From Acidimicrobiaceae bacterium (GTDB lineage Bacteria; Actinomycetota; Acidimicrobiia; Acidimicrobiales; JACDCH01): 42,975 nt of DNA. The position numbers and the translations under genes were made by a program. The DNA is taken from NCBI GenBank assembly GCA_041166685.1, contig JBEEGD010000001.1, positions 1 to 42,975 on the forward strand, in the 5' to 3' direction. Below, piece after piece: positions 2,795 to 42,674 of the stretch (the stretch's first letter is position 1; each line of letters starts with the position of its first letter). The notes under the pieces were generated by a model. The model had not been told where the DNA came from, searched no databases, and was given only the letters and a program-made list of their open reading frames with translations.

Positions 2795-2882
2795 TGCCGG
2801 TCATGTTGTCGCAGTCGCCGAGACACCTCCAAGCTGCCGCTTCAGCACGGAGACCGCGAACTTCGGCGCTCGCGCGGGGAAT

Positions 2883-13741: not shown

Positions 13742-15789
13742 CAACCGCCCTCGCCGCCGAGGAACACGGCGCGCACCAAGTCGTCGCGTTCGAGGAGGTC
13801 GGCCGCGGGCCCCTCGAAGCGCACTTCGCCCTTCTCCATGAACACCGCGCGGTCGGCTACTGCGAGCGCGACGTTGATGGACTGCTCGACGATCACAATC
13901 GTGAGCCCCGCGGCTTTGAGCTGCTCCACGATCGCGAGCAACTGCTGCACGACCACCGGCGCAAGACCGAGGCTGAGCTCGTCGATCAGCAGGATCTGCG
14001 GCTCCAGCAGCAATCCCGCTGCCAACCCGAGCATCTGCTGCTCACCGCCCGACAGCGTCTCGGCCGGTTGATCGAGGCGATCAGCCAGCACCGGGAACAG
14101 CTCGAGCACTTTGTCGATACGCGCGGCGAGCTGCTCTCTGTCCCAGATGAAGGTGTACGCGCCGGCCAACAGGTTCTCCGCGACCGACAGCGTCGGGAAG
14201 ATCGCGCTGCCGCCCGGCACTTGGACGATGCCCAGCCGCACTCGGGTGCCGGGGTCGGCGAAGGTGACAGTGCGACCGCCGAGACGCACCACCCCGCGAT
14301 CCGCGAAGCCGAGACCGCTGATCGCTCGGAGCAACGTCGACTTGCCGGCGCCGTTGGTGCCCAACAGCGCGAGCACCTCTCCCTTGCGAACATCCAGGTT
14401 GACGTCGAACAGGACCTGGACCGGCCCGTACGAATAGTCGAGGTGGCGGATCTGGAGCATGGGCACGTCCGCGCCGGCCGCCATGCGGGCGCGCTCGTCG
14501 CGCTCCTCCACGAGCTCGCTTGCGGCCATGGCCATGTCCTGACGCACGAAGCGCGCGCCGTAGGCGATGAGGGCGCCACCGATGATCGCCGCCGGTGGCG
14601 TCACCAGGACGAGCGCGGCGCGATCGCCGAGTGACTCGGCGATGGTGCCGACGACGAGGGCGCCGCCCAGCCCGCCGATCAGCGACAAGTACAGCCCGAT
14701 GGTGGCGAAGCCCATCGATCGGAGGCGGTAAGGCGTCACCGCCGCGACCAATCCGGTGAGCGGCACGAAAGCGGCGAACACCACTGCGGAACCGATCGCA
14801 CTGACGGCGGTGAACAGGACGACGTTGGGCATGAAAAGCGAGATGGGGACGAGCAATCCGAAGGCGGCGACGAGGGCTCCGCTGAGCCGCACCGCGCTCT
14901 CGGGCGCGCGGCGGAAGAGGCGGTCGCCTGCGGTTCCACCGACCACGACGCCGACGACGCCCCCGAGCGAGCCGACGCTGCCGACGACACCGCGCCCTCC
15001 CGGACCGAGGTCGAAGTGCCGCTCGAGGAACAAGTTGAAGTAGATCGGCGCGGTCACGAACGCGAGGCCCAACGCGCCGAGTGCGCACAAGAAGAAATAG
15101 AACGTCCGGATCTTTTTCAGCCTGGCGAAGGCGGCCGAGATAGGGATCCGAAGCTCACCTTCGTCCGACATCTCTTCGCCGAGCACCGACTGCATCTCGT
15201 TGCGACCACGCTTCGGCTCGGGCAGCCCGAACGCGACGAGCGCCAACAGTGCCGCCGGAATCGACAACACCACGAAGGCCCACCGCCAGCCCAAGTCTCC
15301 ACCGGCGACCGCGGCCACGCCTCCGGCCAGCACCGGACCGATCACCAGACCCACGGGTTGTGCCGCGCGGTGCAAGGCGTAGATCCGGTTGCGGCCCTCG
15401 ATCGGGTAGGCGTCGGCCAACAGTGCGCTGTGGACGGGTTGCTCGTTGGCCTTCCCGAGGCCGGCTGCACCCCACGCGACGACCAGTTGCCAAACGGCCT
15501 GCGCCGCGCCCGTCAGCATCACGAATGCGGCCCAGCCGAGAGAGCAGAGGCCGACGAGCGTGGTGCGCCGGGTCCGGTCGCCGAGATAGCCGAGTGGGAT
15601 CGCGGCCGCGAAGATCACCAGGCCCCCCAGCGCACCGACCACGCCGAGCATGAGGTCCGACATTCGGAGCGACTTCTGGATGTCGGGGCCGAGCACCGCG
15701 AACGCCGAGTTGCTCAGGTTGTCGACCAACACGAGGCCGGCGAGCACACCGATCATCGAGATCCCGCCGGCCCGCAGGACCTCATTCAT
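13741..15789 (-). CDS. Fusion of a 12-TM MFS permease with a LivF-type ABC ATPase
   Basis: The ORF is continuous. The MFS part has motif A GYLGDRTRRTTL and about 12 hydrophobic segments. The LivF NBD starts at MLQIRHL (codon 14458-14460), with Walker A GTNGAGKST, LSGGEQQML and LLIDELS. I chose ATG 15789. In-frame GTGs at 15954/15957 are possible, because the acidic 55-aa stretch between them has coding-like GC3. Confidence 0.85.
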   Translation of the reverse strand: MNEVLRAGGISMIGVLAGLVLVDNLSNSAFAVLGPDIQKSLRMSDLMLGVVGALGGLVIFAAAIPLGYLGDRTRRTTLVGLCSLGWAAFVMLTGAAQAVWQLVVAWGAAGLGKANEQPVHSALLADAYPIEGRNRIYALHRAAQPVGLVIGPVLAGGVAAVAGGDLGWRWAFVVLSIPAALLALVAFGLPEPKRGRNEMQSVLGEEMSDEGELRIPISAAFARLKKIRTFYFFLCALGALGLAFVTAPIYFNLFLERHFDLGPGGRGVVGSVGSLGGVVGVVVGGTAGDRLFRRAPESAVRLSGALVAAFGLLVPISLFMPNVVLFTAVSAIGSAVVFAAFVPLTGLVAAVTPYRLRSMGFATIGLYLSLIGGLGGALVVGTIAESLGDRAALVLVTPPAAIIGGALIAYGARFVRQDMAMAASELVEERDERARMAAGADVPMLQIRHLDYSYGPVQVLFDVNLDVRKGEVLALLGTNGAGKSTLLRAISGLGFADRGVVRLGGRTVTFADPGTRVRLGIVQVPGGSAIFPTLSVAENLLAGAYTFIWDREQLAARIDKVLELFPVLADRLDQPAETLSGGEQQMLGLAAGLLLEPQILLIDELSLGLAPVVVQQLLAIVEQLKAAGLTIVIVEQSINVALAVADRAVFMEKGEVRFEGPAADLLERDDLVRAVFLGGEGG

Positions 15790-16005
15790 CGCCAGGTCCT
15801 CTGACCCGACACCGGGGAGAAGGTCGTCGGTGATGATCGGCTGGTCGACGGCCGCCGACTGCGCGTCGTGCCGCCGAGCCTCCTCGTCGAGCACGGCGGT
15901 CGCCAACGTCGCGGGGTCCGCGCGTTGAACCGATTCTTGGTCGCTCCCCAGCACCACGATCAAGTCAACACGCTTTCTCGACGACGCGCCCCATAGGGTC
16001 TCGGC

Positions 16006-17232
16006 GTGCTGGGGATCGACGACCGACTGGTCGCAGCCGACCTGTGGCGCGACCCGTATCCACTGTTCGAACGCCTGCGCCGAGAGGCCCCTGTGTGGCG
16101 TCTGCCCGGTGAGACCGCATTCCTCGTCTCGACGTGGGCGTTGGTCACCGACGCGACCCGTCGGGTCGAGGATTTCTCCAACCACTTTCGCTACACGCTG
16201 TTCAGCAATGACGACGGAACCCTGGGCGCGCTCGAAACAGGAGCCATGGGGCCGGACGTCTTCGCCGGCGCCGACCCACCGATTCACGGACCGCAGCGCA
16301 AGATCTTCTTCGCGGAGTTGGTGCAGCAGAAGATGGCGGCCATCGAGCCCTTCGTCGGCGAGTTGACGGACGAGTTGCTCGACGGCTTACTGGCCGCGCC
16401 GCGCGGCGATGCCGCAGCCGCGTTGGCACACCCGCTACCGATGCGCGTGGTCGCGGAACGCGTCATCGGGTTCCACGATCCTGACGTCGGTCAGATCGAA
16501 CGCTGGATGTTCGACGGAGCGCGGCTCGTCGGCGGCCTCCTGACGCTCGACCAGATGTCGGCACTCAGCGGTGACGTCGCGGGAATGCTCAGCTGGACGA
16601 CCGAGCAGTTCGACCTTGCGCTCGCGTCGCCCGGCCGCGGTGGCGTCCTCAGCGCGGCAGCCGCTGCGGTTCACGACGGCAGGCTGACGCACGACGAGGC
16701 GGTCTTCACACTGATGGTGCTCGTCGGTGCCGGCGCGGAGACGACGACCAGCCTCATCGGAATCGCCATCGGACTGCTGGCGGAGCACCCCGTGCTGCAG
16801 GCCGAGCTACGCGCCGACCCCACGAAGGTGCCGGCCTTCATCGAAGAGGTGCTGCGCTTCGACTCACCCTTTCGCTATCACCCTCGCACCGCGGCACGCA
16901 CGGTGGAGTTGGGCGGCGTCGAGATCCCAGAAGGCGCGCTGGTGCTCTTGTTGTGGAGCGCGGCGAACCGCGACGAGACGGTGTTCGAGCGTCCCGACGA
17001 GCTGGTCCTCGACCGCAGCAACGTCCATCTGCATTTCGGCTTCGGTCGCGGCATTCACCACTGCGTCGGCGCCGCGCTCGCGAGGCTCGAAGCGCGGGTG
17101 GTGTTGACGAAGCTTCTGGAGCGCACCGCGTCCTTCACGCTCGACACCGACCGGCCACCGCGTTGGGCCGACAGTATTTGGATCCACCGTCACGAGGAGC
17201 TCCCGATCGTGTTCGAGACCCACGATGCCTGA
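16006..17232 (+). CDS. Cytochrome P450
   Basis: Heme loop FGFGRGIHHCVGAALA, ExxR (EEVLRF) and I-helix GAGAETTTS are present. The start is GTG 16006. Confidence 0.95.
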   Translation: MLGIDDRLVAADLWRDPYPLFERLRREAPVWRLPGETAFLVSTWALVTDATRRVEDFSNHFRYTLFSNDDGTLGALETGAMGPDVFAGADPPIHGPQRKIFFAELVQQKMAAIEPFVGELTDELLDGLLAAPRGDAAAALAHPLPMRVVAERVIGFHDPDVGQIERWMFDGARLVGGLLTLDQMSALSGDVAGMLSWTTEQFDLALASPGRGGVLSAAAAAVHDGRLTHDEAVFTLMVLVGAGAETTTSLIGIAIGLLAEHPVLQAELRADPTKVPAFIEEVLRFDSPFRYHPRTAARTVELGGVEIPEGALVLLLWSAANRDETVFERPDELVLDRSNVHLHFGFGRGIHHCVGAALARLEARVVLTKLLERTASFTLDTDRPPRWADSIWIHRHEELPIVFETHDA

Positions 17233-20189: not shown

Positions 20190-20215
20190 TGCCGCATTCT
20201 AGGCTTGCCTTCCTC

Positions 20216-28520: not shown

Positions 28521-28622
28521 GGCTTCACCTTCGGATCGCCGTAGCGAGAAGGGAGCGACCGCTCCGAGCACACCGAGACTTCACGAGTCGACCGGATGTG
28601 CACAATATCGTACACATATTCG

Positions 28623-30844: not shown

Positions 30845-32104
30845 TTATTTGATCGCGTTGGGGTCCATGTCCGCGGACAGGCGCTGCAAGTCCTTCACGG
30901 GCACCTTGTCGATCGGTTGCGCGATCTCTTCGACCGTTGGGCCGTACTTCGCAGCCAGCGGCGCGAGCGCATTCAGGTCGAAGTCGTACAGCTTCGCGAC
31001 GTTGCCGGCGAGGATGTCGCGCATCTCCGACTCGGGCACCGACGAGAAGCGCGCCCGGAGATGCTCGCGGGTATAGGGCCACGTGCCCTCGTCGTGGGGA
31101 TAGTCGCTGCCCCACATGAACCGGTCAGCGCCGATCTTGTCGCGCGCGGCCACGTCGTCGGGACCCGGCTGGCTGACACCCATCCAGACGTTCTGATGGA
31201 AGTACTCGGTGGCGTCCTTCGGCAGCACGTGGTCGTCGCTGTACCGGATCTCGCCCGTCGCACCGGTGTCGCGGATGCCGCGGATCGTGTGATCGAGCCG
31301 ATTGAGGAGTGGCGGAACCCATGCACAACCCTGCTCGGTGAGCACCACCTTGAGGCGTGGGAAGCGCTCGAGGATTCCGCCGAGGATCATGTGCACGAGC
31401 GGTCGCTGGCTGTAGAACCCGACCTCGGTGATGTACAGCAACATCGAGATCGGATACGGGCCGTAGTCCGGCGCGCCGGTACCGCCGTGGACGTTGATGG
31501 GCACCTCGAGGTCCTGACACACCTCCCACAGGCGGTCGTACGCCCGGTCGTAGATCGGCGTCATCCACGTCGCCGACGGCGGGATGTTCGGCAACAACAA
31601 GCCCCCACGCAGGCCGTGTTCCTTGATCCATTTGACGTCGTCGATGGCGTCGTCGATGTCGTTGAGGAAGATCTGTCCGATGCCGGCGCGCCGTTCGGGG
31701 AACTCACCGCACCACTCCTCCAGCCAGCGGTTGTGGGCGCGAATGCCCGCCAGTCGGTGTTCGTAGTGCTCGGGCTCCGGTGGCCCGGCGAAGAGCACGA
31801 AGCTCGGGAAGAACGGTGGCACGGTGTTCGGGAAGATGACCTCGCCGACGATGCCATCCTCTTCCTGCTGGCCGTTGCGCATGTCGTTGTCCCAGTTGCG
31901 CAGCCGGCGGTTGTCGCCGAGGTCCTTGTACGGGTTCTTGTACTTCCCGCGCCAGGCGTCGAAGTCTTCGAGGTAGGCCGGATCGAGGTGTTCTCGGTAG
32001 GCGGCGTGACTGCCACCGGCGTGGCAGTCGGCCGAGCTGATCGTGTACCGCTCAGCAGTCTGGGTCCGGGGCGCAACCGCCCCGGGCGTCGTCGCAGTGG
32101 CCAT
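30845..32104 (-). CDS. Amidohydrolase-2 family metal-dependent hydrolase
   Basis: ATG 32104 is the chosen start, because the maximal ORF to 32326 runs antisense into the LivG gene. ISSADCHAG, NVHGGTGAPDYGP and WGSDYPHDEGTWP are present. Confidence 0.8.
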   Translation of the reverse strand: MATATTPGAVAPRTQTAERYTISSADCHAGGSHAAYREHLDPAYLEDFDAWRGKYKNPYKDLGDNRRLRNWDNDMRNGQQEEDGIVGEVIFPNTVPPFFPSFVLFAGPPEPEHYEHRLAGIRAHNRWLEEWCGEFPERRAGIGQIFLNDIDDAIDDVKWIKEHGLRGGLLLPNIPPSATWMTPIYDRAYDRLWEVCQDLEVPINVHGGTGAPDYGPYPISMLLYITEVGFYSQRPLVHMILGGILERFPRLKVVLTEQGCAWVPPLLNRLDHTIRGIRDTGATGEIRYSDDHVLPKDATEYFHQNVWMGVSQPGPDDVAARDKIGADRFMWGSDYPHDEGTWPYTREHLRARFSSVPESEMRDILAGNVAKLYDFDLNALAPLAAKYGPTVEEIAQPIDKVPVKDLQRLSADMDPNAIK

Positions 32105-32117
32105 GGACACAGTCTCC

Positions 32118-32135
32118 GCGAGAACGCGTTCTCGC
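32118..32135. promoter_or_regulatory. Perfect 18-bp palindrome with a KstR-like core (candidate TetR-type operator)
   Basis: GCGAGAACGCGTTCTCGC contains AGAACnnGTTCT. It lies 14 nt upstream of ATG 32104 and 46 nt upstream of GTG 32181, in a 76-bp divergent intergenic region. Confidence 0.6.
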
Positions 32136-32180
32136 GCCAGCCCGCGTTCTACAGTCTGGCCGCTGGCTCTGGGGGTTCGT

Positions 32181-32912
32181 GTGGCGCTGCTCGAGGTGAA
32201 GCAGGTCTCGGTGCACTTCGGGGGCGTCGCCGCGCTCACGGACGTCGATCTCGACGTCGAGGACGGGCAGGTCACGGGCCTCATCGGCCCGAACGGCGCG
32301 GGCAAGACCACGCTGTTCAACGTCATCTGTGGTCTTCAGGGGGCGGACCACGGCCGCGTCGTGCTCGCCGGGGCGGACATCGGTGGCCTCGCGCCGCACA
32401 AGCGAGCCCGTCTGGGGATCGGCCGGACCTTCCAGCGGCTCGAGGTGTTCGGCTCGATGACCGCGCGCGACAACATCCGAGTCGCAGGCGACGTGCGCCG
32501 CACCTGGGCATCCGACGTGCCGCCTTCCGCCGAGGTCGCTGACGAGATCCTCGACCGCGTCGGCTTGCGCCCGGTCGCCAACGAGCGGGTCGACGCGCTG
32601 CCGACGGGGCTGGCTCGGCTGGTCGAGGTGGGGCGGGCGCTGGCCAGCCGGCCGCGGGTGCTGCTGCTCGATGAGCCGTCGTCAGGCTTGAGCGAGGACG
32701 AAACCGACACCTTTGCCAACTTGCTGGACGACCTCTCGTCCGAGGGGCTCGCGATCTTGCTCGTCGAGCACGACGTGGAGTTGGTGATGCGGGCGTGCAA
32801 GCACATCTTCGTGCTCGACTTCGGTCGCATCATCGCGGTCGGAAACCCGACAGAGATCCAAAAGAACGCTCTGGTGCAAAGCGCTTACCTCGGCACGGTC
32901 GCGGGCGAGTGA
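32181..32912 (+). CDS. LivG-type ABC ATPase (locus 2)
   Basis: Walker A GPNGAGKTT, signature LPTGLARLVE and Walker B LLLDEPSSG are present. The start is GTG 32181. Confidence 0.85.
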   Translation: MALLEVKQVSVHFGGVAALTDVDLDVEDGQVTGLIGPNGAGKTTLFNVICGLQGADHGRVVLAGADIGGLAPHKRARLGIGRTFQRLEVFGSMTARDNIRVAGDVRRTWASDVPPSAEVADEILDRVGLRPVANERVDALPTGLARLVEVGRALASRPRVLLLDEPSSGLSEDETDTFANLLDDLSSEGLAILLVEHDVELVMRACKHIFVLDFGRIIAVGNPTEIQKNALVQSAYLGTVAGE

Positions 32913-33853
32913 GGGGCGCGGCGCTCGCCGCCGCGGTTGCGCTGGTCGCGTGCACCAGTACGAGCAACGGGTCACCACCGACGACGAGCGCGGCAGCGGC
33001 GGGTTCGCGCGTCGAGCTCTCACCGCTCGAGGGCAGACCTTCCGCAGTTGCGGTCGGTGCGGACGCGGTGTGGGTGACCGACGATGAGCGCGGCGTGGTG
33101 CTCCGGCTCGATCAACGCAACGGCAAACAGCTCGGTCCACCGATCGCGGTGTCGCCCCACCCGATCGCGATCGACGTCAGCGAGCACACGGTATGGGTCG
33201 CGGACCGGGCTGGCACGATCACGCGCATCGACGCCGCAAGCGCGACGGTGAGTGCTGCCCCGATCGAGGTCGGAGGACACCTCGTCGATCTGGTCGTCGA
33301 CGGCGCGGTCGTGTGGGTGGCCGACATCGAGTCGAGCGTCGTGCTGTCGTTGGATGAAGCGAGCGGCGCGCTGGGTCAGCGGGTGCCGGTGGTCGACGGT
33401 GTGGTGCGGCTCGCCGTCGGACCCGCCGGGCTGTGGGTCACGAACCGTGATCACACCGCGACGAAGATTGATCGTGCCACACGCGGGCCGGGCCCGCCCG
33501 TCGAGGTCGGCGCCGGACCGATCGGCGTCACTGTGGCAGAGAACGTGGTGTGGATCGCGAACGCGGACGACGGCACGGTCAGCCGGCTCAGCGCGGATGA
33601 CGGGCACCTGATCGGCCCGGCCATCGCCGTGGGCGGTACACCGATCAGCGTCGTGGTGGTGAACAACGACGCATTGGTGATCCAACAGGATGGCCGAGCC
33701 GCGAGCCGGATCGACGTTCGCACGGGCTCCGTAGTAGAGCGCGCGTTGGACCTGCACCTTCGACCGCGCGATGCGACATCGTCGGGCGCCGGCACATGGG
33801 TGGTCGGCATCGACCCATCGGCGGCAGTGCTCGTCAGGACGCCGGGCGCTTGA
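32909..33853 (+). CDS. Beta-propeller repeat lipoprotein (YVTN/Vgb-lyase-like blades)
   Basis: The GTG overlaps the LivG stop (GTGA, 32909-32912). Lipobox LVA-C is present. Six ~40-aa repeats end in VWVTDDERGVVLRLD, VWVADRAGTITRID, VWVADIESSVVLSLD, LWVTNRDHTATKID, VWIANADDGTVSRLS and ALVIQQDGRAASRID. Confidence 0.7.
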   Translation: MRGAALAAAVALVACTSTSNGSPPTTSAAAAGSRVELSPLEGRPSAVAVGADAVWVTDDERGVVLRLDQRNGKQLGPPIAVSPHPIAIDVSEHTVWVADRAGTITRIDAASATVSAAPIEVGGHLVDLVVDGAVVWVADIESSVVLSLDEASGALGQRVPVVDGVVRLAVGPAGLWVTNRDHTATKIDRATRGPGPPVEVGAGPIGVTVAENVVWIANADDGTVSRLSADDGHLIGPAIAVGGTPISVVVVNNDALVIQQDGRAASRIDVRTGSVVERALDLHLRPRDATSSGAGTWVVGIDPSAAVLVRTPGA

Positions 33854-34298
33854 CCCTGGCCCGACCGTTCTGCTTCTCGTTGAGTCGCGTCTCGAGCGCG
33901 GCCACGAGCTGTCGGGTCCGCTCCTCGCTCTCCGCCTGCATCTTCTTCGTCACGACGACCCAGAACGTCGACGCCAGCAGAAGGCCGCCCAGGAACACGA
34001 GCGCGAGCCCGACGAGCCCGCCCGAGATCAAGTATGGGATCTGCTCGATCTGACGAAACGTGCCGGACGCGCCGATCCAGCCAAACAACATGAAGTTGAA
34101 GCCGAGGATCACCAGAATCGACGCGGGCACGAGCATCCAGCGCAGCAGGTCGTCGGACGTGGACCGCGACGCGACGTCGTGCAACGACTGGCGGAACCGG
34201 CGACGTCTCGATGCCGCCCGCTCCGCGGTGTCGGCGTCCGTGACCGCGACGACGACCGGCACGTCCATCGCTACATCTTTCTCGCCCACATCAGTCAT
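33834..34298 (-). CDS. Hypothetical small membrane protein (2 TM helices, charged helical C-terminus)
   Basis: The ATG overlaps the upstream stop (ATGA, 34295-34298). Hydrophobic segments are MLVPASILVILGFNFMLFGWIGA and IPYLISGGLVGLALVFLGGLLLASTFWVVV. The tail is KKMQAESEERTRQLVAALETRL. Confidence 0.6.
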   Translation of the reverse strand: MTDVGEKDVAMDVPVVVAVTDADTAERAASRRRRFRQSLHDVASRSTSDDLLRWMLVPASILVILGFNFMLFGWIGASGTFRQIEQIPYLISGGLVGLALVFLGGLLLASTFWVVVTKKMQAESEERTRQLVAALETRLNEKQNGRARVKRPAS

Positions 34299-35518
34299 GT
34301 CGTGAGGACCTCCGTAAAGACACGCTCCATGTACCGGCGGATTCGTCGGCTACCGGGTATTGCCGCGAGGAAGAGGCCAAGGACGAGGACAAGCGGGACA
34401 CCGCCGAAGGTGTAACCGATCGCCGTGTTGGGCGAGGTCGGGGTTCCCGTTCTGGTCGGAATGGCCGCCGTCTGCGACGGCAGGGATGGGTTCGAGCTGA
34501 GGATCCCTCCACTGGCCGGACCCGGCGCGTGGGCGATGACGTTGGCGGCGGTCGGTGCGGGGTTGGTCGGGCCCTTGGTGGCCGTCTGGCTCTTCACCAG
34601 TGACGCGGCGGCTGCGGCCGTCGTGCTGGCGAACACCATGTTGAGGCGACCGCCGGGCGGTATCGGCGGTACCGCGGGCAACGGCACCGAGATGAGGAGT
34701 CCGCCGGTTGACCGGCTCCCCGTCGCGCCGCTGCACCCGTCGGCCGATCCGAGGGTGCGGGCCTGGATGCCGCTCGACGCGAGGAGCGCGTCCGCCGCCG
34801 CGTTGGAGTCCTTCGCGTGAATGCCGCTGTCGTCGATCTCCACTGGCGTGTCGCCGACCCTCGCGCCCGACACGACCGCGATCCCTTCGCACTTCGCCGT
34901 CACACCGTCGCTCACCGCCGTGGACGTGGTCGAGACCGAATCAATGTGCAGCACGCCCACGTTGATGCCGTTCGCCGTGCTCGTCACGGTGGACGTGATG
35001 CTCTTGGCCTCGAGCACGCTCTCGCTGACAGTTCGGATCGATCCCACGTTGACCAGACCCGGGATCAGGAAGGCGCCGTTCTCGGCCGTCGCGACGGCGT
35101 GGTCGGGTCGGACGTCGGTGGACATCGTGATGCCCGGCTGCTCGTTGTGCTTCGCGTCCTCGTACTCCTTCTGCTCGACGACCAGGGGGTAATCCGGGAG
35201 CGGTAGCCGGGTTCCGGACGCAATCTCGATGAGGGGACGGATGCCGACAAAGAGTGTTCCTGGCCACACCGTGCTGGCCCGCCCGAACCCACGACCGCCG
35301 GTGCCCAAGTTCGTGAGACCGAGTGACAACGTGCCTTCGATCGGCGTCTCCACCGGCAACAGCGCCGGCAACGATGGGCCCGCGGTGAATCCGGTCCCGG
35401 CGCTTGCCCCCGAGTAGCCACCGAAGTTCTCGCCCACCGCGCTGGCGGGCGACGATCCGGCGAGCGCAGAGAAGATGAGCAGGGCGCCGACTGCATGCAG
35501 CACGCGCGCGGGGTTCAC
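34295..35518 (-). CDS. Hypothetical secreted protein with a C-terminal membrane anchor
   Basis: The GTG overlaps the LivF stop (GTGA, 35515-35518). It has a signal peptide ...ALAGSSPASA and a Ser/Thr/Val-rich, probably beta-rich body. A Pro/Thr/Ala linker follows, then the terminal TM GGVPLVLVLGLFLAAIPG and RRIRRY. Confidence 0.65.
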   Translation of the reverse strand: MNPARVLHAVGALLIFSALAGSSPASAVGENFGGYSGASAGTGFTAGPSLPALLPVETPIEGTLSLGLTNLGTGGRGFGRASTVWPGTLFVGIRPLIEIASGTRLPLPDYPLVVEQKEYEDAKHNEQPGITMSTDVRPDHAVATAENGAFLIPGLVNVGSIRTVSESVLEAKSITSTVTSTANGINVGVLHIDSVSTTSTAVSDGVTAKCEGIAVVSGARVGDTPVEIDDSGIHAKDSNAAADALLASSGIQARTLGSADGCSGATGSRSTGGLLISVPLPAVPPIPPGGRLNMVFASTTAAAAASLVKSQTATKGPTNPAPTAANVIAHAPGPASGGILSSNPSLPSQTAAIPTRTGTPTSPNTAIGYTFGGVPLVLVLGLFLAAIPGSRRIRRYMERVFTEVLTT

Positions 35519-36252
35519 GCGCTTGTCCCGAGGTAGGCGTGCGTCAACTTGTCCGCCATGTCCTTCGGGTCGCCAAGGCCTCGGATGCGGCCTTGCACGA
35601 GGATCGCGACCTCGTCGACGAACTCGATCACGCCAGCGAACTGCTCCACCACGACGATGGTCACACCTCCCGCTGCCAGCTCGCGTACCACCTCAAAGAG
35701 CTGGCTCACCACGATAGGGGCCAAGCCCATGGACAGTTCGTCGAGGAGGATCAGGGCGGGATCCGTGGTCAGCGCTCGCGCGAGCGAAAGCATCTGTTGC
35801 TCGCCACCGGAGAGCGTGCCCGCAAGCTGATTGCGCCGTTCGCCAAGCCGCGGGAAACGCTCGTAGGTGCGGTGTTCGAGATCCTCGAGCCGTCGACCGT
35901 TCGCCGCGAACGTGTCCATCAACACGTTCTCACGAACGGTCAGGTTGGGGAACACGCCACGACCCTCAGGGATCAGGCACACGCCGGCGCGGGAGAGGTG
36001 CTCAGCGGACGCGCCGGTCACGTCGAGGCCCTCCATGCGGACGCTTCCTCCGGACGGTGCCATCACGCCGCTCACGACCTTGAGCATGGTGGTTTTCCCC
36101 GCGCCATTCGGCCCGAGCACGGCGAGCACCGATCCGCCACGGACGACCAGATCGATGCCGTGCAGTACCTCGATGTTGCCGTAGCCGGCGTGGACGCCGC
36201 GTAGCTCGAGCACCGGTACCGCGTCAGGCGGAGTGGGCGTCGCGTCAGGCAT
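35515..36252 (-). CDS. LivF-type ABC ATPase (locus 2)
   Basis: Walker A GPNGAGKTT, LSGGEQQMLSLARAL and LILLDELS are present. ATG 36252 overlaps the upstream gene by 8 nt. Confidence 0.9.
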   Translation of the reverse strand: MPDATPTPPDAVPVLELRGVHAGYGNIEVLHGIDLVVRGGSVLAVLGPNGAGKTTMLKVVSGVMAPSGGSVRMEGLDVTGASAEHLSRAGVCLIPEGRGVFPNLTVRENVLMDTFAANGRRLEDLEHRTYERFPRLGERRNQLAGTLSGGEQQMLSLARALTTDPALILLDELSMGLAPIVVSQLFEVVRELAAGGVTIVVVEQFAGVIEFVDEVAILVQGRIRGLGDPKDMADKLTHAYLGTSA

Positions 36253-38188
36253 TGACGGGTGGCCCGACGGGTTCGGCGGCAGCTGTGGGTTCGCGGCGGG
36301 TCAGGCGACGCACCACGTCGACTCGTTTGCGGACCGCGGCGCGCAGCTGTCCCGACACCCCACCCGCGTGGCGCGCCGCGTACATCGCCAACAGGCCGAT
36401 GATCAACGGCTGGAGCGCTTGCGCGCCGGAGAAGCCGCCTCCTCCGCCGCTGCCGAGACCCTGCAGCACGCGTGGCAACACGACGAAGAACAATGCACCC
36501 AACAGCGCGCCCGACACGCTCGTGATGCCGAAGATCGTCGCCACCAGAAGCACCGCCAGCGACTTGAAGTAGAAGAAGTCGAGCTGGCCGACGCGCACCT
36601 GCAGCGCGCCCAGCAGCGCCCCCGCGGCACCGGCGAGCGCCGCGGACATCCCGAACGCGACCAGCTTGATCCGCGCGAGTGACAGTCCCATCGTCTGACA
36701 GGCTGTCGGCGAGTCGCGCAAGGCGTTGAGCATGCGGCCGAGAGCACTTCGCCGCACTGCGAGGAAGACGTTGGCAAACACCGCGCAGGCGAGCGCGCAG
36801 ACGATGAACATCTGACGGTCGCCGTTGAGATCGAGCGAGACCGGACGGGGAACGGCCAGCGATTCACCCCCGCCGAACACGTTGCTGTTTCCGAAGAACA
36901 GCCCGTCCATCAGGATCGCGAACGCGAGCGTGAGGAGGGCCAAATAGATGCCTCGCAGCCGCAGTACGGGCAGCGCCACCAGGCAGCCGGCGATGCCGGT
37001 CACTCCCGCAGCGAGCGCGAAACCGACGATCCACGGAACGCCGGTGCCGAGCTCACCGATCACCACGGCGCCCACCCCGACGAATGACATCTGCATCAAC
37101 GAGACCTGGCCTGACAGGCCTGTGAGCAGTACGAGGCTGAGCGTGATGCACGTGTACACCAGCGCGTTCGAACCTGTGGTGAGGTCGGGCCGGCTGAGCT
37201 GGCCCGACAACGCCCAGGCCCCGATCACCGCGAGTCCGCCGATGCCGACCGTTGTCTGCCACCGCGGCGGGCTCGGTTCCGCATGCGTTGGCACCCGCTC
37301 TGGCAGACGGCGTTGCGCGAAGAGCAGCAGGGCGCCGAACAGCACGATGAACGGCACGGCCTGCTTCAAGTTGCGCACGATCTCGTTGTCCTGCGGCAGG
37401 TAGCCGACGAACATCGACTGGCTGACGCCCAACACCAACGCGCCGGCGAAGGTGGCGGGAAGGTTCTGCAGCCGACCGACCACCGCGGCGGCATACGCCT
37501 GCACGACGAGGAGGCTCAGACCGTTCACCTCGAGGTTCAGACCGGGGGCGATGAGGATGGCCGCGAGCCCAGCCAGCATCGAACCGAGTGCCCACGACGC
37601 GGCCGTGATCCGGTTGGGGCTCGAGCCCTTGACCGCGCACAGTTCGGGGTTGTCGACGACCGCACGCATCGCGACACCGAGGCGTGTGCGGCGAAAGAGC
37701 ACCCGCAACCCGAATGCAACCGCCAGAGCGGCGAACACCGTCGTCGCCTGATCCCAGCTGATGTTGACACCGGCCAGCCGGAACGTGCGATCGCCCCACA
37801 GCCCGGGAACAGTCCGCAGGTTCAAGTCCCACATCGCGAGCGCGAGGCCCTGGAACGACAGGAGCAGCGCAAGCGTCACGACCAACTTCGTCGCGACCGT
37901 GGTGCCCCTCAGAAGACGGCGCATCACGAGTGCGTCGAGCGTGACGCCGATCAGCGGCGCCACCACGCCCAGCGTGACGATCAACGCCAGCGGGGTCGGC
38001 CATCCGCGGTTGACCCGCAGCTCCCAGTAGACGAACGCGAGGAACATGCCGACCGCGCCGTGAGCGAAGTTGAACACGCCAGAGGTGATGTAGGTGACGA
38101 CGAGGCCAGTGGCCGAGATGGCGTAAATGGCCGCGAGCGTGACCCCGAGGACCAGAAACGTGAAGAACGTCTGCAGGTCCAAGCCCAT
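36245..38188 (-). CDS. Fused LivH-LivM HAAT-family ABC permease (locus 2)
   Basis: The LivH-like N-terminal half has GVFNFAHGAVGMFLAF. The LivM-like C-terminal half has LLTGLSGQVSLMQMSFVGVGA. There are about 18 hydrophobic segments. Confidence 0.9.
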   Translation of the reverse strand: MGLDLQTFFTFLVLGVTLAAIYAISATGLVVTYITSGVFNFAHGAVGMFLAFVYWELRVNRGWPTPLALIVTLGVVAPLIGVTLDALVMRRLLRGTTVATKLVVTLALLLSFQGLALAMWDLNLRTVPGLWGDRTFRLAGVNISWDQATTVFAALAVAFGLRVLFRRTRLGVAMRAVVDNPELCAVKGSSPNRITAASWALGSMLAGLAAILIAPGLNLEVNGLSLLVVQAYAAAVVGRLQNLPATFAGALVLGVSQSMFVGYLPQDNEIVRNLKQAVPFIVLFGALLLFAQRRLPERVPTHAEPSPPRWQTTVGIGGLAVIGAWALSGQLSRPDLTTGSNALVYTCITLSLVLLTGLSGQVSLMQMSFVGVGAVVIGELGTGVPWIVGFALAAGVTGIAGCLVALPVLRLRGIYLALLTLAFAILMDGLFFGNSNVFGGGESLAVPRPVSLDLNGDRQMFIVCALACAVFANVFLAVRRSALGRMLNALRDSPTACQTMGLSLARIKLVAFGMSAALAGAAGALLGALQVRVGQLDFFYFKSLAVLLVATIFGITSVSGALLGALFFVVLPRVLQGLGSGGGGGFSGAQALQPLIIGLLAMYAARHAGGVSGQLRAAVRKRVDVVRRLTRREPTAAAEPVGPPVNA

Positions 38189-38263: not shown

Positions 38264-39736
38264 ATGGGGGTTCGTCGCGTTGGGGTGCGGCGTGCGCTGT
38301 TGGTGATGTTGGCGTTGCTCATGCCAGCGGCGTGCGGTTCACGATTGCCCGAGAAGGTCCTCACGCGTCTCGACAACGCCGCGCTCGGTGCCAACGGCAA
38401 CGGCACGTCCGTCTCCGGCGCACCTGGCGCGGGCGGAGCCGCGGGCCCGGCGGCCGCCAATGGCTCGACGAGCGCGGCCGGCGCGACGGGAACGGGCGGC
38501 GGAGGCACCGGCGCCGGACAGACCGGTGGCGCCACCGCCGGAGCCACGGACACGGGTGCGGCAGCGGCCGCCGATTGCCACGGCGGAGCCACCGACACCG
38601 GCGTGACCGCGGACGAGATCAAGGTGGCGGCGATGGTGACGGCTTCGGGACCGTTGCCGGGCGCGACCGAGGGCCAGTACCGCGGCGCGGCGTCCTACCT
38701 CGCCAAGATCAACGCCGAGGGCGGTGTGTGCGGTCGCAAATTCACGATCGTCGAGGGGGACGACGGTCTCGACCCCCAGCGAGCACGCAGCGAGTTCCTG
38801 CGGCTCGAGCCGCAGGTCTTCGCGTTCGTGGGAAACCTCGCGGTGGCCGATTCCGGATACATCGACCTCCTCGAGTCCACCAAGGTGCCCTACGTCGGCG
38901 TGTCCGTCGACCCGAAGGGCCGGCCGATCGAGAGCGTCGTACCGCACGCCGATCCAGCGCCGGGGACACACGTGGCGAACACCGGACCGTACGTGTACAT
39001 GCTGCAGAAGCACCCCAGCGCGACCAAGGTGGCCTTCCTGTATGCGGACGTCGGCGGGGTGCGCGCCAACATCGGCGGGTCACTCGAGCCGCTCAAGAAA
39101 GCCGGCTATCAGATCGTGTACGGACCGTCGGGCGCGGGCACGACCTCGCCCGACTACACGCCCGAAGTCATCAACATGCAGAGCTCCGGTGCGCAGATGG
39201 TGTACCTGTTCGCCTTCGAAGTGAACATGCACATCCGTATGGCGCGCAGCATGCGCCAACAGAACTTCGAGCCCGAGCTCAAGGTCTCGAACATTGGTTA
39301 CAACTCACAGTTGATCAAGCTCCTCGGCGACGTGGCCAATGGCTGGCTCAACCCGATTCCGCACGTGCCGATGCTCGACGCGTCCGAACCCTCGGTGAGT
39401 CCCGCGTTGCAAGAGTTCCTGAAGTGGAACACGCAGCTGTTCCCGGACTCGTCCGTCGATCTCTTTCCTGTGAATGGATGGGCGGCCGCCGCGCAGTTCG
39501 TCAGAGGACTACGAGAGCTCGGGCCCGACGTGACACGGGCGAAACTCGTCGAAGCCATCAACGCGATACCAGAGGACGACGGCGGTGGGATGATCGGCAC
39601 GGTCTTCCCGGCGCAGCGGCAAGGATCGCCGTGCTTCGTCATCGAACGAGTCGAGCAACAGCAATGGGTGCGGGAGTACCCCGCGAGCGGGTTCGAGTGC
39701 AACCTCGGCGAATCGTTCGAGTGGAAGGATTCGTAG
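38264..39736 (+). CDS. Liv/HAAT-type ABC substrate-binding lipoprotein (locus 2)
   Basis: ATG 38264 is the chosen start; the ORF upstream of it is antisense shadow. Lipobox LLMPAA-C is present, followed by a ~90-aa Gly/Ala/Thr linker. A type-I binding fold follows (IKVAAMVTASGPLPGATEGQYRGA, GRKFTIVEGDDG). Confidence 0.8.
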   Translation: MGVRRVGVRRALLVMLALLMPAACGSRLPEKVLTRLDNAALGANGNGTSVSGAPGAGGAAGPAAANGSTSAAGATGTGGGGTGAGQTGGATAGATDTGAAAAADCHGGATDTGVTADEIKVAAMVTASGPLPGATEGQYRGAASYLAKINAEGGVCGRKFTIVEGDDGLDPQRARSEFLRLEPQVFAFVGNLAVADSGYIDLLESTKVPYVGVSVDPKGRPIESVVPHADPAPGTHVANTGPYVYMLQKHPSATKVAFLYADVGGVRANIGGSLEPLKKAGYQIVYGPSGAGTTSPDYTPEVINMQSSGAQMVYLFAFEVNMHIRMARSMRQQNFEPELKVSNIGYNSQLIKLLGDVANGWLNPIPHVPMLDASEPSVSPALQEFLKWNTQLFPDSSVDLFPVNGWAAAAQFVRGLRELGPDVTRAKLVEAINAIPEDDGGGMIGTVFPAQRQGSPCFVIERVEQQQWVREYPASGFECNLGESFEWKDS

Positions 39737-39802: not shown

Positions 39803-40939
39803 TTAGCCGTCCAGCTCCGCGCTCATGCGTTGGGTGACGTCGATGTACTCGTCGATCATCTCGAGCACGACTTGCTTGGTGGTGCGCACCGAGTTCATGC
39901 GGCTGACGATCTGACCGACGGGCATCCCCACGAGCTCCCGGGGCGGGTTCGCACCCATCTTGCGGTTGGCGTACGCGTTGAGAATGAACTGCAGCGGCAT
40001 CGGCAGCGTGCCGGGGGAGTCGGGCGAGTCCCACGCATCGGTCCACGCGGTACGCAGCTGGCGCGCGGGCTTGCCGGTGAACGCCCGCGAGCGGACAGTG
40101 TCGGTCGACGTCGCGGCCAGCAGCTTCTCGGTGACGACGCCGCCGTAGTCGTTCTCGATCGTGGTGAGCCAGCTGGACCCGGTCCACACGCCGTCGGCAC
40201 CGAGGGCCATGGCCGCGGCCATCTGCCGGCCCGAACCGACCCCGCCGGCCGCCAGCACGGGCACCGGCGCGATCGCATCCACCACGTCAGGTACGAGCAC
40301 CATCGACGCGACTTCACCTGTGTGACCGCCGGCCTCGTAGCCCTGAGCGATGATGATGTCGACGCCTTGCTGTACGTCGCGTACCGCTTGCTCGACGCGA
40401 CCGATGAGCGCCGCGATCTTGACCCCTTGCTCGTGGGCCTGGTCGATGGCCGCCTTTGGTGGCGGACCGAGCGCGGACGCCAACAGCGAGATCGGGTGCG
40501 AGAGCGCGATCTCGATCTGCGGTGCGCCGGTGGCTTCGGTCCAGCCGAGCACGCCGGCGCCCATCCCGGCACCTTCTTCGAGCACGTCTGCATCGTCTGA
40601 GACGTCGACGCCATGATCGGCCAGGATCTTGTCCACGTAGTCCCAGTGGTCCTGCGAGATGAACTCACGCAGCTTGGCCCCGATGTCGCTCACATCGTCG
40701 AGCCCCGCATCGCGGTCGACGGTTTTGACCGGCATCACGACGTCGACGCCGTACGGCCTGCCGTCCACGTGCTCGTCGATCCACTTCAGCTCGAGCTCGA
40801 GCTGTTCGGGCGAGAACGCCAGCGCGCCGAGCACACCCATGCCACCTGAGTTGGTGACGGCCGCGACGACGTCACGGCAGTGCGAGAACGCGAAGATCGG
40901 GAACTCGATCCCGAACATGTCAACGAGCCGATTCTTCAT
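39803..40939 (-). CDS. Nitronate monooxygenase (NMO / 2-nitropropane dioxygenase-like, FMN TIM barrel)
   Basis: ATG 40939 has AAGGAG 5 nt upstream. MFGIEFPIFAFSHCRDVVAAVTNSGGMGVLGA and GYEAGGHTG are present. Confidence 0.85.
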   Translation of the reverse strand: MKNRLVDMFGIEFPIFAFSHCRDVVAAVTNSGGMGVLGALAFSPEQLELELKWIDEHVDGRPYGVDVVMPVKTVDRDAGLDDVSDIGAKLREFISQDHWDYVDKILADHGVDVSDDADVLEEGAGMGAGVLGWTEATGAPQIEIALSHPISLLASALGPPPKAAIDQAHEQGVKIAALIGRVEQAVRDVQQGVDIIIAQGYEAGGHTGEVASMVLVPDVVDAIAPVPVLAAGGVGSGRQMAAAMALGADGVWTGSSWLTTIENDYGGVVTEKLLAATSTDTVRSRAFTGKPARQLRTAWTDAWDSPDSPGTLPMPLQFILNAYANRKMGANPPRELVGMPVGQIVSRMNSVRTTKQVVLEMIDEYIDVTQRMSAELDG

Positions 40940-40957
40940 GCTCACTCCTTTTCGAAT

Positions 40958-40999
40958 TCCCACTCATCCGTACACAAATTTGTGTACGGATGAGTGGGA
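40958..40999. repeat. Palindromic repeat element, copy B (perfect 42-bp palindrome)
   Basis: TCCCACTCATCCGTACACAAA|TTTGTGTACGGATGAGTGGGA lies between the FadD-like stop (41009) and the NMO SD (40945-40950). Confidence 0.85.
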
Positions 41000-41008: not shown

Positions 41009-42604
41009 CTATTGCAATGCCTCCTCGAGGAGCTTCTTGGCTCGGGGGTAGTCGGGCTTCCCCGACGGCTGGCGTGGGATCACGTCGACGATGAGCAGTT
41101 CCCGCGGCACCTTGTACCCGGCGATGCGCGTGCGGGAGTGCTCGACGAGTTCCTCCAACGTGACCGACGTACCGGGGCGAGGTTGGACGACCGCGGTCAC
41201 CTTCTGCCCCCAGCGATCGTCGTCGATGCCGACAACGAGCACGTCGAACACACTCGCGTGCGCCTTGAGTGCGGCCTCGACTTCCTCCGGGTAGATCTTC
41301 TCGCCACCAGAGTTGATGCACTGCGACCCGCGTCCGAGCAACGTCATCGTGCCGTCGAGCTCGAGCCGCGCGAAGTCGCCGGGCACTGAGTAGCGCTTGC
41401 CCTCCACTTGGACAAAGGTCGCGGCGGTCTTGACCGGATCCTTGTAGTAACCGACCGGCACATTGCCGCCGCGCGCCATCCGTCCGGTCTCACCCGGCTG
41501 GACGGGCTTGTTGTCGTCGTCGATGACGATCGTGTCGGGACCGCGCGTCACGTTCACCAAACCCGTGTCGTTCGCGGTTGCGCCCTTCTCGAGCAGCCGC
41601 AGACCGTTGAACCCGGTTTCCGAGGATCCGACCGCCTCGCTGACGAACAGATTGGGCAACAATTCGAACAACTGGTCCTTCACCACCGGCGAGAACACCG
41701 CGGCGGTGGAGCTGACGGCGATCAGGCTGCTGGTGTCGTAAGAACGCTCCTGCAACGCGTCGATCAACGGACGCGCCATCGCATCCCCCGTGATCGCCAG
41801 CGTGGCGATGCGGTAGCGCTCGACGGCGGCCCACACGTCGTCCGCGTCGAATTTCGGGAGCAACACGAGCGACGTACCGCGAAACAAGCCGCCGAAGGTC
41901 GTCCACTGTGCGGCGCCGTGCATGAGCGGCGCCAAGATGAGCGCGTGGCTCGGCGGCGCGGCGGCCCCGTCTTGCGCCAGCTTGTGCTCCTCTTCGACCC
42001 GCTCGCCGGTCACGAAGTCGATGCCGCCGCCCAACGTGCGGAACACGTCTTCGTGCCGCCACATCACGCCCTTCGGGAAGCCGGTGGTGCCGCCGGTGTA
42101 GAGCACGTAGAGATCGCCGTCGTCGCGTGGCGCGAAGTCGCGCGCGGGCGAAGCTGTCGCCAGCGCATCCTCATACGCCACGACCTCTTCCAGCGCGCAC
42201 GGCGTGCCGTCGTCCACGACGATGAGATGCTGCAGCAATGGCAGTTTGTCGCGCACGCCCGCCATACGCGGGCAGAACTCGGCCTGGAAGACGCATGCGA
42301 CGACATCGGCGTTCTCGAAGAGGTAGATCAGCTCCTCCTCGACGTACCGGAAGTTCACGTTGATCGGTACCGCACGCAGCTTGAAGCAGGCGAGCATCGT
42401 CTCGACGAACTCGATCGAGTTGTAGGAGTAGATGGCGACGTGCTGGCGCTCACCCACGCCGCTGGCGGCGAGATGGTGGGCCAGCCGGTTCGACCGCTCC
42501 TCGAGCTCCGTGTAGGTGATCGAGCGATCTCCGCAGATGAGAGCGATGCGCTCGGGCACCAAGTCGACGGCGTGCTCGACCAGATCGGCGAGGTTGAAGG
42601 CCAT
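41009..42604 (-). CDS. Acyl-CoA synthetase, FadD19-like (AMP-binding family)
   Basis: ATG 42604 gives the N-terminus MAFNLADLVEHAVDLVPERIALICGD, typical of FadD19-type ligases. The AMP motif is LYTGGTTGFPKGVMWRHEDV. The maximal ORF begins at TTG 42640. Confidence 0.85.
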   Translation of the reverse strand: MAFNLADLVEHAVDLVPERIALICGDRSITYTELEERSNRLAHHLAASGVGERQHVAIYSYNSIEFVETMLACFKLRAVPINVNFRYVEEELIYLFENADVVACVFQAEFCPRMAGVRDKLPLLQHLIVVDDGTPCALEEVVAYEDALATASPARDFAPRDDGDLYVLYTGGTTGFPKGVMWRHEDVFRTLGGGIDFVTGERVEEEHKLAQDGAAAPPSHALILAPLMHGAAQWTTFGGLFRGTSLVLLPKFDADDVWAAVERYRIATLAITGDAMARPLIDALQERSYDTSSLIAVSSTAAVFSPVVKDQLFELLPNLFVSEAVGSSETGFNGLRLLEKGATANDTGLVNVTRGPDTIVIDDDNKPVQPGETGRMARGGNVPVGYYKDPVKTAATFVQVEGKRYSVPGDFARLELDGTMTLLGRGSQCINSGGEKIYPEEVEAALKAHASVFDVLVVGIDDDRWGQKVTAVVQPRPGTSVTLEELVEHSRTRIAGYKVPRELLIVDVIPRQPSGKPDYPRAKKLLEEALQ

Positions 42605-42612
42605 GCTCGGAG

Positions 42613-42626
42613 TAGAACACGTTCTG
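42613..42626. promoter_or_regulatory. KstR-type operator box
   Basis: TAGAACACGTTCTG matches 7 of the 8 constrained positions of TnnAACnnGTTnnA. It starts 9 nt upstream of the FadD-like ATG. Confidence 0.6.
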
Positions 42627-42674
42627 CGCGGCTGCGGCAATCAGCGCTCTGACCTGCTCGGTGGCGACCCAAAC

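Follow-up and report, generated by a model that had tools for sequence, protein, structure and literature searches.

Predicted membrane-tethered β-propellers are conserved members of two Liv-type ABC importer clusters in an Acidimicrobiaceae bacterium

Introduction

ATP-binding cassette (ABC) importers are usually described as consisting of a substrate-binding protein (SBP), a permease and ATPases, and further extracytoplasmic partners are, to our knowledge, rare and poorly understood. The closest described systems involve β-propellers. In the pedC-pedB-pedA2-pedA1 operon of Pseudomonas putida, a YVTN propeller is encoded between the ATPase and the SBP (PMC6839425), and LutB, the corresponding protein of Methylorubrum, is genetically required, a lutB mutant having a growth defect like that of the SBP mutant lutA (PMC7391723). 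AztD, an extra partner that is understood, hands zinc to the SBP AztC; it has eight blades, two conserved zinc sites and a conserved disulfide, and its Gram-positive versions, those of Actinobacteria among them, are predicted lipoproteins (PMC6689063). BtuG is a YncE-family surface lipoprotein that captures vitamin B12 for BtuB in Bacteroides (PMC10404256). Here we analyze two genes for predicted extracytoplasmic β-propellers, Prop1 and Prop2, in a stretch of 42,975 nucleotides (67% GC) from an Acidimicrobiaceae bacterium (contig JBEEGD010000001.1), which we call the window, and compare the two Liv-type importer clusters that contain them, locus 1 and locus 2, with related loci.

An earlier note on this DNA had taken the adjacency of a propeller gene and a LivG-type ATPase gene at both loci for a functional module and not for chance. 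The neighbourhood comparison it suggested, run here on related loci, agrees with that view: the adjacency recurs in divergent relatives and gene order is conserved at both loci. On balance we favor, if only modestly, the reading that Prop1 and Prop2 are membrane-tethered accessory components of two distantly related Liv/HAAT-type importers, helping to capture substrate or to hand it off.

Results and Discussion

Coupling of the propeller genes to transporter genes

Both propeller genes belong to Liv-type importer clusters, in which they are conserved, read in the same direction as transporter genes and are tightly coupled to them. In locus 2, Prop2 (32909..33853, plus strand) directly follows the gene of a LivG-type ATPase; in locus 1, Prop1 (9600..10880, minus strand) directly follows a gene in which LivH, LivM and LivG are fused. 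The plus strand at 32900-32919 reads cgcgggcgaGTGAggggcgc. Here, the LivG-type open reading frame (ORF; 32043..32912) is ended by TGA at 32910-32912, and GTG at 32909-32911, in frame with the ORF 32795..33853, opens a frame of 314 codons that ends at 33853. The two genes thus share GTGA at 32909..32912 (plus strand), as the earlier note had it. Its second overlap is equally present in the DNA: minus-strand positions 10880-10877 read ATGA and join the stop codon of the fusion gene to the start codon of Prop1.

The start of Prop2 at GTG 32909 is supported by its homologues, which begin at the same place, and by the invariance of its lipobox cysteine. The GC content by codon position is of coding type for both propeller genes. 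They look real because the third position reaches 0.81 in each and because AlphaFold2 models both as confident β-propellers (pLDDT 90.9 for Prop2 and 82.2 for Prop1). Protein-level homologues are numerous for both.

Stop/start overlaps of four nucleotides occur at nearly every junction of both operons, so GTGA and ATGA indicate operon membership and nothing particular to LivG. We therefore rejected the overlap as a peculiarity of LivG-propeller pairs. A promoter and terminator scan of 31900-34500 yielded nothing above chance expectation, and no such site between LivG and Prop2. Since the junctions leave no space for a promoter or terminator, the propellers should be made from the same mRNA as the transporter genes, and their translation probably proceeds by termination-reinitiation.

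Conservation of the two loci

Contigs with Prop2 homologues at 43-75% identity (L001, L002, L003/L004, L010, L011 and the contig of P0010) all have LivG immediately upstream. An independent search, started from the locus 2 protein Unk407, led to three further loci (L026-L028), each with LivG followed by a lipoprotein of 312-333 residues that is Prop2-like by tblastn at 39-49% identity. Taken together, the gene next upstream of Prop2 is LivG in 10 of the 11 distinct loci (39-75% identity), with a 4-nt overlap in five and a gap of 0-4 nt in the other five. By reading of the DNA, the overlap is GTGA in the window, L001, L003 and L010, TGA is followed directly by GTG in L002, one nucleotide separates the genes in L026, L027 and L028, and four nucleotides separate them in L011; the 4-nt overlap in the P0010 contig is taken from gene-call coordinates only. 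In L002 and L003, the Prop2 start was chosen so as to give a proper signal peptide.

The convergent genes TM154, Unk407 and LivF are present in 11 of 11 Prop2 loci, as is the LivHM gene wherever the contig reaches it, and contigs of the 43-75% identity group also contain the SBP where they are long enough. The LivG-Prop2 pair stays intact in L002 despite the insertion of two acyl-CoA dehydrogenase (ACAD) genes downstream, and also where an MFS gene replaces the Amidohydro_2 gene as the upstream neighbor (P0010 contig, L026-L028). Within the cluster, Prop2 and Unk407 consistently evolve fastest: in L010 they are 70% and 79% identical to their window counterparts, against 88-94% for the other cluster genes, and in L001 49% and 47%, against 69-84%. 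Propellers of no more than 36% identity to Prop2 are not directly linked to Liv genes. Four of their loci (L012, L014, L015, L025) have no Liv neighbors, and in a fifth (L013) an unrelated Liv operon lies about 4 kb away.

In L026, a 3.16-Mb genome contig, the SBP, LivHM and LivF genes are split into several frames (2600-7000), which could reflect either pseudogenizing frameshifts or errors in the assembly of long reads; on this contig, LivG, the propeller, Unk407 and TM154 are unbroken.

Relatives of Prop1 at 41-68% identity were found in 10 distinct loci (the window, L005, L007, L008, L016-L020 and L022), and in all ten the gene lies inside an operon of MFS-LivF, LivHMG and SBP genes, after LivHMG in eight and after the SBP in two (L007, L008). 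The LivHMG-Prop1 junction is ATGA or GTGA in all seven that could be read of these eight (L020 was not resolved). In L007 and L008, Prop1 overlaps the stop codon of the SBP gene, so that ATGA or GTGA joins Prop1 to LivHMG or the SBP at nine of nine readable junctions. Prop1 diverges at about the rate of its SBP. A profile search of 1.84 billion representative proteins gave at least 236 Prop1-family clusters (50% identity) at E ≤ 1e-30.

What is invariant in these comparisons is membership of a complete Liv-type transporter cluster and not adjacency to LivG as such, because the SBP intervenes in two of the ten Prop1 loci and because L023, which has no LivG upstream of its propeller, keeps the convergent transporter genes. 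The two Liv systems of the window are distant paralogues, with 40-43% identity between their nucleotide-binding domains (NBDs), 35% in the LivM part and 21% between the SBPs. As their propellers, too, are of different types with different numbers of blades, the association either is ancient or has arisen twice.

The adjacency could, in principle, be functionally meaningless, with unrelated cell-surface propellers kept in these operons by descent within a narrow lineage. The loci do come mostly from metagenome-assembled genomes of Acidimicrobiia, stop/start overlaps are generic in such high-GC operons, and Prop2 evolves much faster than its neighbors. However, the association outlasts rearrangement (SBP and Prop1 exchanged in L007 and L008, ACAD genes inserted in L002, the Amidohydro_2 neighbor replaced by MFS) as well as divergence down to 39-41% identity; it involves two structurally different propellers with two distant Liv systems, and propellers outside both subfamilies are not Liv-linked. 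We consider mere hitch-hiking very improbable.

The partner transporters

On their domain matches, both partner transporters classify as Liv/HAAT-type ABC importers, with BPD_transp_2 permeases, LivG and LivF ATPases and a Peripla_BP_6 SBP. The best NCBIfam matches of the partner ATPases are LivG and LivF, both under the equivalog cut-offs, and the NBDs at the propeller junctions of both loci carry PF00005 and the LivG-specific C-terminal motif PF12399.

In locus 2, the LivG-type ATPase (32181..32912, plus strand) has LivG as its best NCBIfam match with 191.7 bits, which is under the equivalog cut-off. Its ORF opens at 32043; GTG 32181, which follows a GGGGG run, is the probable start, the homologues being 246-251 residues long. 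The other transporter genes lie mostly on the minus strand. A fused LivH-LivM permease with two PF02653 stretches (36245..38188) is followed by a LivF-type ATPase (35515..36252; PF00005), by Unk407 (34295..35518), a protein of 407 residues with an apparent N-terminal signal peptide and a C-terminal transmembrane (TM) anchor, and by the last gene of this operon, TM154 (33834..34298), which encodes 154 residues with apparently two hydrophobic, putative TM segments. SBP2, a Peripla_BP_6 lipoprotein (38264..39736, plus strand; PF13458) with the N-terminus MGVRRVGVRRALLVMLALLMPAAC and a long Gly/Ala/Thr-rich linker, is encoded divergently from an inferred start at ATG 38264. As the minus-strand LivHM-LivF operon has no LivG of its own, the LivG-Prop2 pair supplies the lacking ATPase from the opposite strand. 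LivG of locus 2 is the missing NBD of the convergent LivHM-LivF-Unk407-TM154 operon with its divergent SBP; that it might be an orphan ATPase was rejected, given this operon without LivG and the conservation of the whole arrangement.

Neither Unk407 nor TM154 has a significant Pfam or NCBIfam match. Both occur in every Prop2-type locus that could be examined, TM154 at 52-88% identity in every related locus. The 59 homologues of Unk407 are all annotated as hypothetical and come from Acidimicrobiia or Actinomycetota. We also considered Unk407 as a homologue of Prop1 and rejected this, since the two show no similarity (BLASTP E > 2).

The 3' ends of Prop2 (plus strand) and TM154 (minus strand) overlap by 20 nt (33834-33853), with no terminator-like site, so that the mRNAs of both operons would be complementary at their 3' ends. 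This could couple them through antisense effects or transcriptional interference. Comparable 3' overlaps of 4-38 nt are found in L001, L003, L011 and L026-L028.

In locus 1, all four genes are on the minus strand and chained by overlaps. An 848-residue fusion of an MFS domain with a LivF-type ATPase (13741..16287; PF07690 and PF00005, best NCBIfam match LivF) is followed by the LivH-LivM-LivG triple fusion of 955 residues (10877..13744; two PF02653 stretches, PF00005, PF12399), by Prop1, and by SBP1 (8068..9603), a substrate-binding protein that has a TM anchor and a long linker and whose ATG overlaps the Prop1 stop codon in the ATGA at 9600-9603. SBP1 and Prop1 belong to no Pfam or NCBIfam family in their window versions; homologues of SBP1 carry PF13458. 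The unusual fusions MFS-LivF and LivHMG recur in L007, L008, L016, L017 and L019, and L008 has two such fused systems in tandem, together with TetR regulators.

Prop2, a predicted YVTN-type propeller

The Prop2 N-terminus, MRGAALAAAVALVAC, contains the lipobox LVAC at residues 12-15. Ala14 and Cys15 are invariant among close homologues (alignment A3), and the same feature is found in L026-L028. With its signal peptide and lipobox, Prop2 is predicted to be a bacterial lipoprotein of 314 residues, in which a short Ser/Thr/Pro/Ala linker leads to the propeller.

The alignment-based AlphaFold2 model (pTM 0.85) and a blade alignment give seven four-stranded blades of about 40 residues, starting around positions 43, 84, 124, 164, 203, 244 and 285, with an N-terminal strand (34-39) closing blade 7. 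The best structural matches of the model in Foldseek include Escherichia coli YncE (TM-score 0.78), Vgb lyase (0.78-0.83) and an archaeal S-layer YVTN domain. In comparisons of the family profile with structures, the YVTN S-layer protein 1l0q ranks far ahead (E-value 1e-50) of YncE (6e-14), Vgb lyase (about 1e-12), the PknD sensor (6e-12) and BtuG (2e-11), and AztD gives a weak, partial match over about 80 residues (2.8e-5). By model and profile alike, Prop2 would thus be a seven-bladed propeller of the YVTN/YncE type. The earlier note had already recognized YVTN/Vgb-like blades of about 40 residues behind a lipobox; its count of six blades has to be raised by one.

In Pfam, Prop2 matches no family at E ≤ 0.01, and in NCBIfam it has only sub-threshold matches (CIS12, 32 bits against a cut-off of 860); some homologues carry PF24684 (Vgb_lyase) or PF21959. 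Loop conservation within the family is higher on the top face (D-A and B-C loops) than on the bottom face (0.71 vs 0.52; Mann-Whitney p = 5e-5). Invariant polar residues are mostly Asp/Asn turn positions repeated in each blade, the only partly conserved histidine is H84 (77% of members), and family conservation gives no evidence of a blade-specific His/Glu metal site or catalytic set. In many distant relatives the propeller is joined to a domain of an adenylate/guanylate cyclase or a Ser/Thr kinase; the cyclase-YVTN propeller fusions among them are about 515 residues long.

Prop1, a predicted NHL-type propeller

Prop1 has 426 residues and is laid out as a TM helix (9-27), a disordered Pro/Thr/Ala-rich linker (31-101) and a propeller that AlphaFold2 models with six blades. 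Its N-terminal motif RRLxxTEGQxYT is conserved, and the cysteine pair C222 and C231 is invariant. Within alignment A2, conservation is 0.68 both for the N-terminal motif with the TM helix and for the propeller, and 0.40 for the linker. The family signature RRLxCTEGQxYTMxIGL...GIPAVLR spans the juxtamembrane segment and the TM helix (residues 1-37), and we found no description of it in the literature. Most full-length family members match from about profile position 4 on, and the exact [ST]EGQ ahead of the TM helix is found in 47 of 147 newly listed members, with close variants (TDGQ followed by GIPPxLR) in many others.

Foldseek matches of the model are Pizza6/PknD, the NHL domain of TRIM71, DFPase and the SGL lactonase 2p4o, with target-normalized TM-scores of 0.65-0.74 for the two enzymes. 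With the family profile, Pizza and PknD match at 1e-8 to 1e-10 (PknD 1rwi, the best natural match, at 2.6e-8), teneurin and TRIM71 NHL follow more weakly, and the lactonases are marginal (E-values 0.16-0.4). Faint matches to PF01436 or PF08450 occur in some homologues. Profile and model together point to a six-bladed NHL-repeat propeller. Of the SGL/NHL-like body behind a TM anchor that had been proposed for Prop1, the NHL (PknD-like) character and the TM helix are therefore retained, while the likeness to SGL is structural only and weak. Its strand-A motifs (GGLAV, TGAAL, YGLAV, GPLAV) have neither Glu nor Asn at the position that we take to be characteristic of SGL enzymes.

Prop1 and Prop2 show no similarity in BLASTP, and only a profile-profile comparison with hhalign connects them (probability 94.7%, E-value 6e-8), which may reflect generic propeller repeats. 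That the two are clearly different subtypes, as claimed from the sequence, holds in the models, seven-bladed YVTN against six-bladed NHL.

These similarities bear on two alternatives to an accessory role. In the first, the propellers would be extracytoplasmic enzymes, a lyase, lactonase or esterase in the style of Vgb or of SGL/DFPase, turning a lactone or ester precursor into the carboxylate bound by the SBP, co-expressed with the importer without being part of it. The fold similarity of Prop2 to Vgb lyase, the Vgb_lyase matches of some of its homologues, the similarity of the Prop1 model to DFPase and SGL lactonase, and the catabolic neighbors of the loci (ARO-like oxygenase, ECH, ACAD, CoA ligase, NMO) would all fit such enzymes. 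The marginal profile scores of Prop1 against lactonases, compared with those against non-catalytic NHL propellers, argue otherwise, as do the predominance of Asp/Asn turns among the invariant polar residues of Prop2 and the lipoprotein nature of Prop2, Vgb lyase being a cytoplasmic resistance enzyme. Moreover, tight 1:1 translational coupling with an ATPase and, in Prop1, a conserved TM motif are more in keeping with the subunit of a complex than with a free enzyme. We regard an enzymatic role as unlikely.

In the second alternative, the propellers would be ligand sensors that regulate or signal through the transporter, comparable to the NHL sensor of PknD split off as a separate membrane-anchored polypeptide. 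This draws on the cyclase and kinase fusions of distant Prop2 relatives, on the profile match of Prop1 to the PknD sensor domain, and on the conserved N-terminal motif of Prop1, which lies on the cytoplasmic side and could, with the TM helix, transmit a signal. Yet neither propeller has an output domain, Prop2, with only a lipid anchor, cannot signal across the membrane alone, and coupling to structural transporter genes suggests stoichiometric assembly and not a low-copy regulator. Sensing overlaps with an accessory subunit role and is not cleanly separable from it with the present data; as an explanation of its own we find it distinctly unlikely.

A proposed accessory role in substrate uptake

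Both propellers are very probably outward-facing and tethered to the membrane, as their sequences and models indicate; for Prop2 the invariant lipobox cysteine, and for Prop1 the TM helix and the invariant cysteine pair, support this position. Each is anchored in the same mode as its SBP: in locus 2 both are lipoproteins, and in locus 1 both have a TM helix and a long low-complexity linker. By analogy with known systems, we infer that the propellers act in an accessory role together with the SBP. At the outer face of the membrane, the propeller would capture substrate or pass it to the SBP or the translocator. In Prop1, docking onto the fused permease probably falls to the TM helix and the conserved N-terminal motif, and the lipid anchor of Prop2 would keep it beside SBP2, likewise a lipoprotein.

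We prefer an accessory binding role because the closest sequence relatives of the propellers are binding or sensor propellers (YVTN S-layer protein, YncE, PknD, BtuG) and not enzymes, because no blade-specific set of catalytic residues is evident, because coupling to the ATPase gene suggests stoichiometric production, and because precedents exist in PedA2/LutB, AztD and BtuG.

Several points weigh against this preference. P0014, a propeller of 39% identity to Prop2 (L023/L024), is not preceded by LivG; a divergent MFS gene takes its place, with the convergent genes kept. The top-face conservation of Prop2 may in part be structural, since glycines and the per-blade Asp/Asn turns account for many of the positions. 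Function cannot be transferred by homology, since neither propeller reaches any Pfam or NCBIfam threshold. The loci sampled belong mostly to one class, Acidimicrobiia, and part of the synteny could be inherited and not selected. PedA2/LutB, the closest analogue, is itself without a known mechanism, and deletion of yncE in E. coli causes no transport phenotype (bioRxiv 10.1101/2022.06.07.495086).

A more far-reaching idea, which we consider possible though doubtful, is that the two loci represent an undescribed architectural class of Liv/HAAT transporters in Actinomycetota, reached twice with different propellers. In such systems a membrane-docked propeller, either of YVTN type and lipid-anchored or of NHL type with a TEGQ-TM docking helix, would be a stoichiometric extracytoplasmic subunit, and in the locus 2 type the complex would include Unk407 and TM154 as well. 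The propeller might serve as a second receptor for substrates of low solubility, such as terpenoid or alicyclic acids, feeding the SBP or translocator. Our literature searches turned up no account of a propeller acting as an accessory to a Liv/HAAT transporter.

Neighboring genes and the substrate

Divergent from LivG in locus 2 lies an Amidohydro_2 gene (30845..32104, minus strand), assigned by domain match and PDB similarity. Its product is most similar to PtmU3 (6omp, 3e-25) and DitZ (8uyr, 7e-23), which are amidohydrolase-related dinuclear oxygenases that hydroxylate diterpenoids (PMC13154177). The gene is conserved in L001, L003, L010, L011, L026, L027 and L028, with a partial match in L023. 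Beyond SBP2, the locus 2 map continues on the minus strand with NMO (39803..40963) and an acyl-CoA ligase (41009..42640). The conserved neighbors, namely the PtmU3/DitZ-like oxygenase, ECH, ACADs, CoA ligase, NMO and MFS, suggest a substrate that is probably a carboxylic acid degraded by way of its CoA ester, and perhaps terpenoid-like. The SBPs give no clue to the substrate, as PDB sequence searches found no match for SBP1 and only generic Leu/Ile/Val-binding proteins for SBP2, at 1e-8 or weaker. Rfam detected no riboswitch or other RNA in the window that might point to the substrate.

Further genes of the window are recorded here for completeness. A cytochrome P450 gene (15997-17232, plus strand) is divergent from the locus 1 operon, and a PNP_UDP_1-P450 fusion lies just downstream of the L005 operon (L005 11018-12970), so that a P450 could be a recurring neighbor of the Prop1-type system. 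Also next to locus 1, on the opposite strand, are genes for a 928-residue GGDEF-EAL protein (3573-6359, plus strand), whose C-terminal part is a receiver domain and whose long N-terminal region has no family match, and, following it, for an ATP-grasp protein with IQCH-like and PGM1_C matches (6396-7928, plus strand). A second Amidohydro_2 gene (20240-21391, plus strand) adjoins a GntR/FCD regulator (19434-20198). An α/β-hydrolase domain fused to an adenylate/guanylate cyclase catalytic domain is encoded at 28596-30020 (plus strand) and overlapped by the gene of a putative lipoprotein of 275 residues without family match (29993-30820, plus strand). Between this cyclase gene and a β-lactamase-family gene (25590-27317) lies that of a DUF222-family protein (27330-28571, minus strand), a family that in Actinobacteria is frequently associated with HNH endonucleases and mobile elements.

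Implications

The window contains two structurally different propellers in two different Liv-type systems, one of them from a sizeable family. If they are subunits or hand-off proteins, the parts list of a major transporter family becomes longer, many Actinomycetota genes now called "hypothetical" or "YncE-like" could be annotated, and a tractable second example would be at hand to help explain PedA2/LutB. The catabolic neighbors hint at uptake of a hydrophobic carboxylic acid, which bears on carbon turnover by soil Acidimicrobiia.

Comparison with known systems

At the level of folds, Prop2 resembles Vgb lyase; it differs from that enzyme in its lipoprotein signal and in conserving only one histidine, and that in part, and it reaches no family threshold. 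Prop1 similarly resembles SGL and DFPase at the fold level only, its sequence similarity to them being marginal and below any family threshold.

Among sensors, the NHL domain of Mycobacterium tuberculosis PknD (1rwi) is like Prop1 in being a six-bladed NHL propeller outside the membrane of an actinobacterium and having a single TM helix. PknD continues into a cytoplasmic kinase domain, whereas all that Prop1 has there is a short conserved motif of some 10 residues at its N-terminus; its gene is translationally coupled to transporter genes. The pknD gene itself is located among the pst genes for a phosphate ABC transporter.

BtuG, like Prop2, is a lipid-anchored propeller of the YncE type in an uptake system, and the Prop2 profile matches it; its partner is an outer-membrane TonB-dependent transporter of a diderm and not, as here, an ABC importer of the cytoplasmic membrane. 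AztD is closer in genetic setting, being an operon-encoded extracytoplasmic propeller with a lipoprotein form in Gram-positives and a weak profile match to Prop2. Nonetheless, its eight blades and zinc sites contrast with the seven blades and single, partly conserved histidine of Prop2, which does not fall within the AztD family, and its transporter is a cluster A-I metal ABC system and not of the Liv type.

The greatest likeness is to PedA2/LutB, which belongs to an ABC importer for lanthanides. This extracytoplasmic propeller is seven-bladed and of the YVTN/YncE type, and its gene is part of the importer operon; the order of NBD, propeller and SBP in the ped operon is that of locus 1. The NCBIfam model TIGR03866 matches neither Prop1 nor Prop2 at E ≤ 0.1, and a PQQ-dehydrogenase domain was found neither among the about 40 ORFs of the window that were scanned nor among the gene calls of related loci. 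The ped system has a single permease and a single ATPase, in contrast to the Liv/HAAT systems described here with BPD_transp_2 permeases and both LivG and LivF. Further differences are that the host of Prop1 and Prop2 is probably a monoderm actinobacterium with the propellers tethered to the membrane, and that Prop1 appears to be a six-bladed NHL and not a YVTN propeller. A propeller encoded in the operon of an ABC importer is already known from PedA2/LutB and AztD; its linkage to a transporter of the Liv/HAAT type appears to be new.

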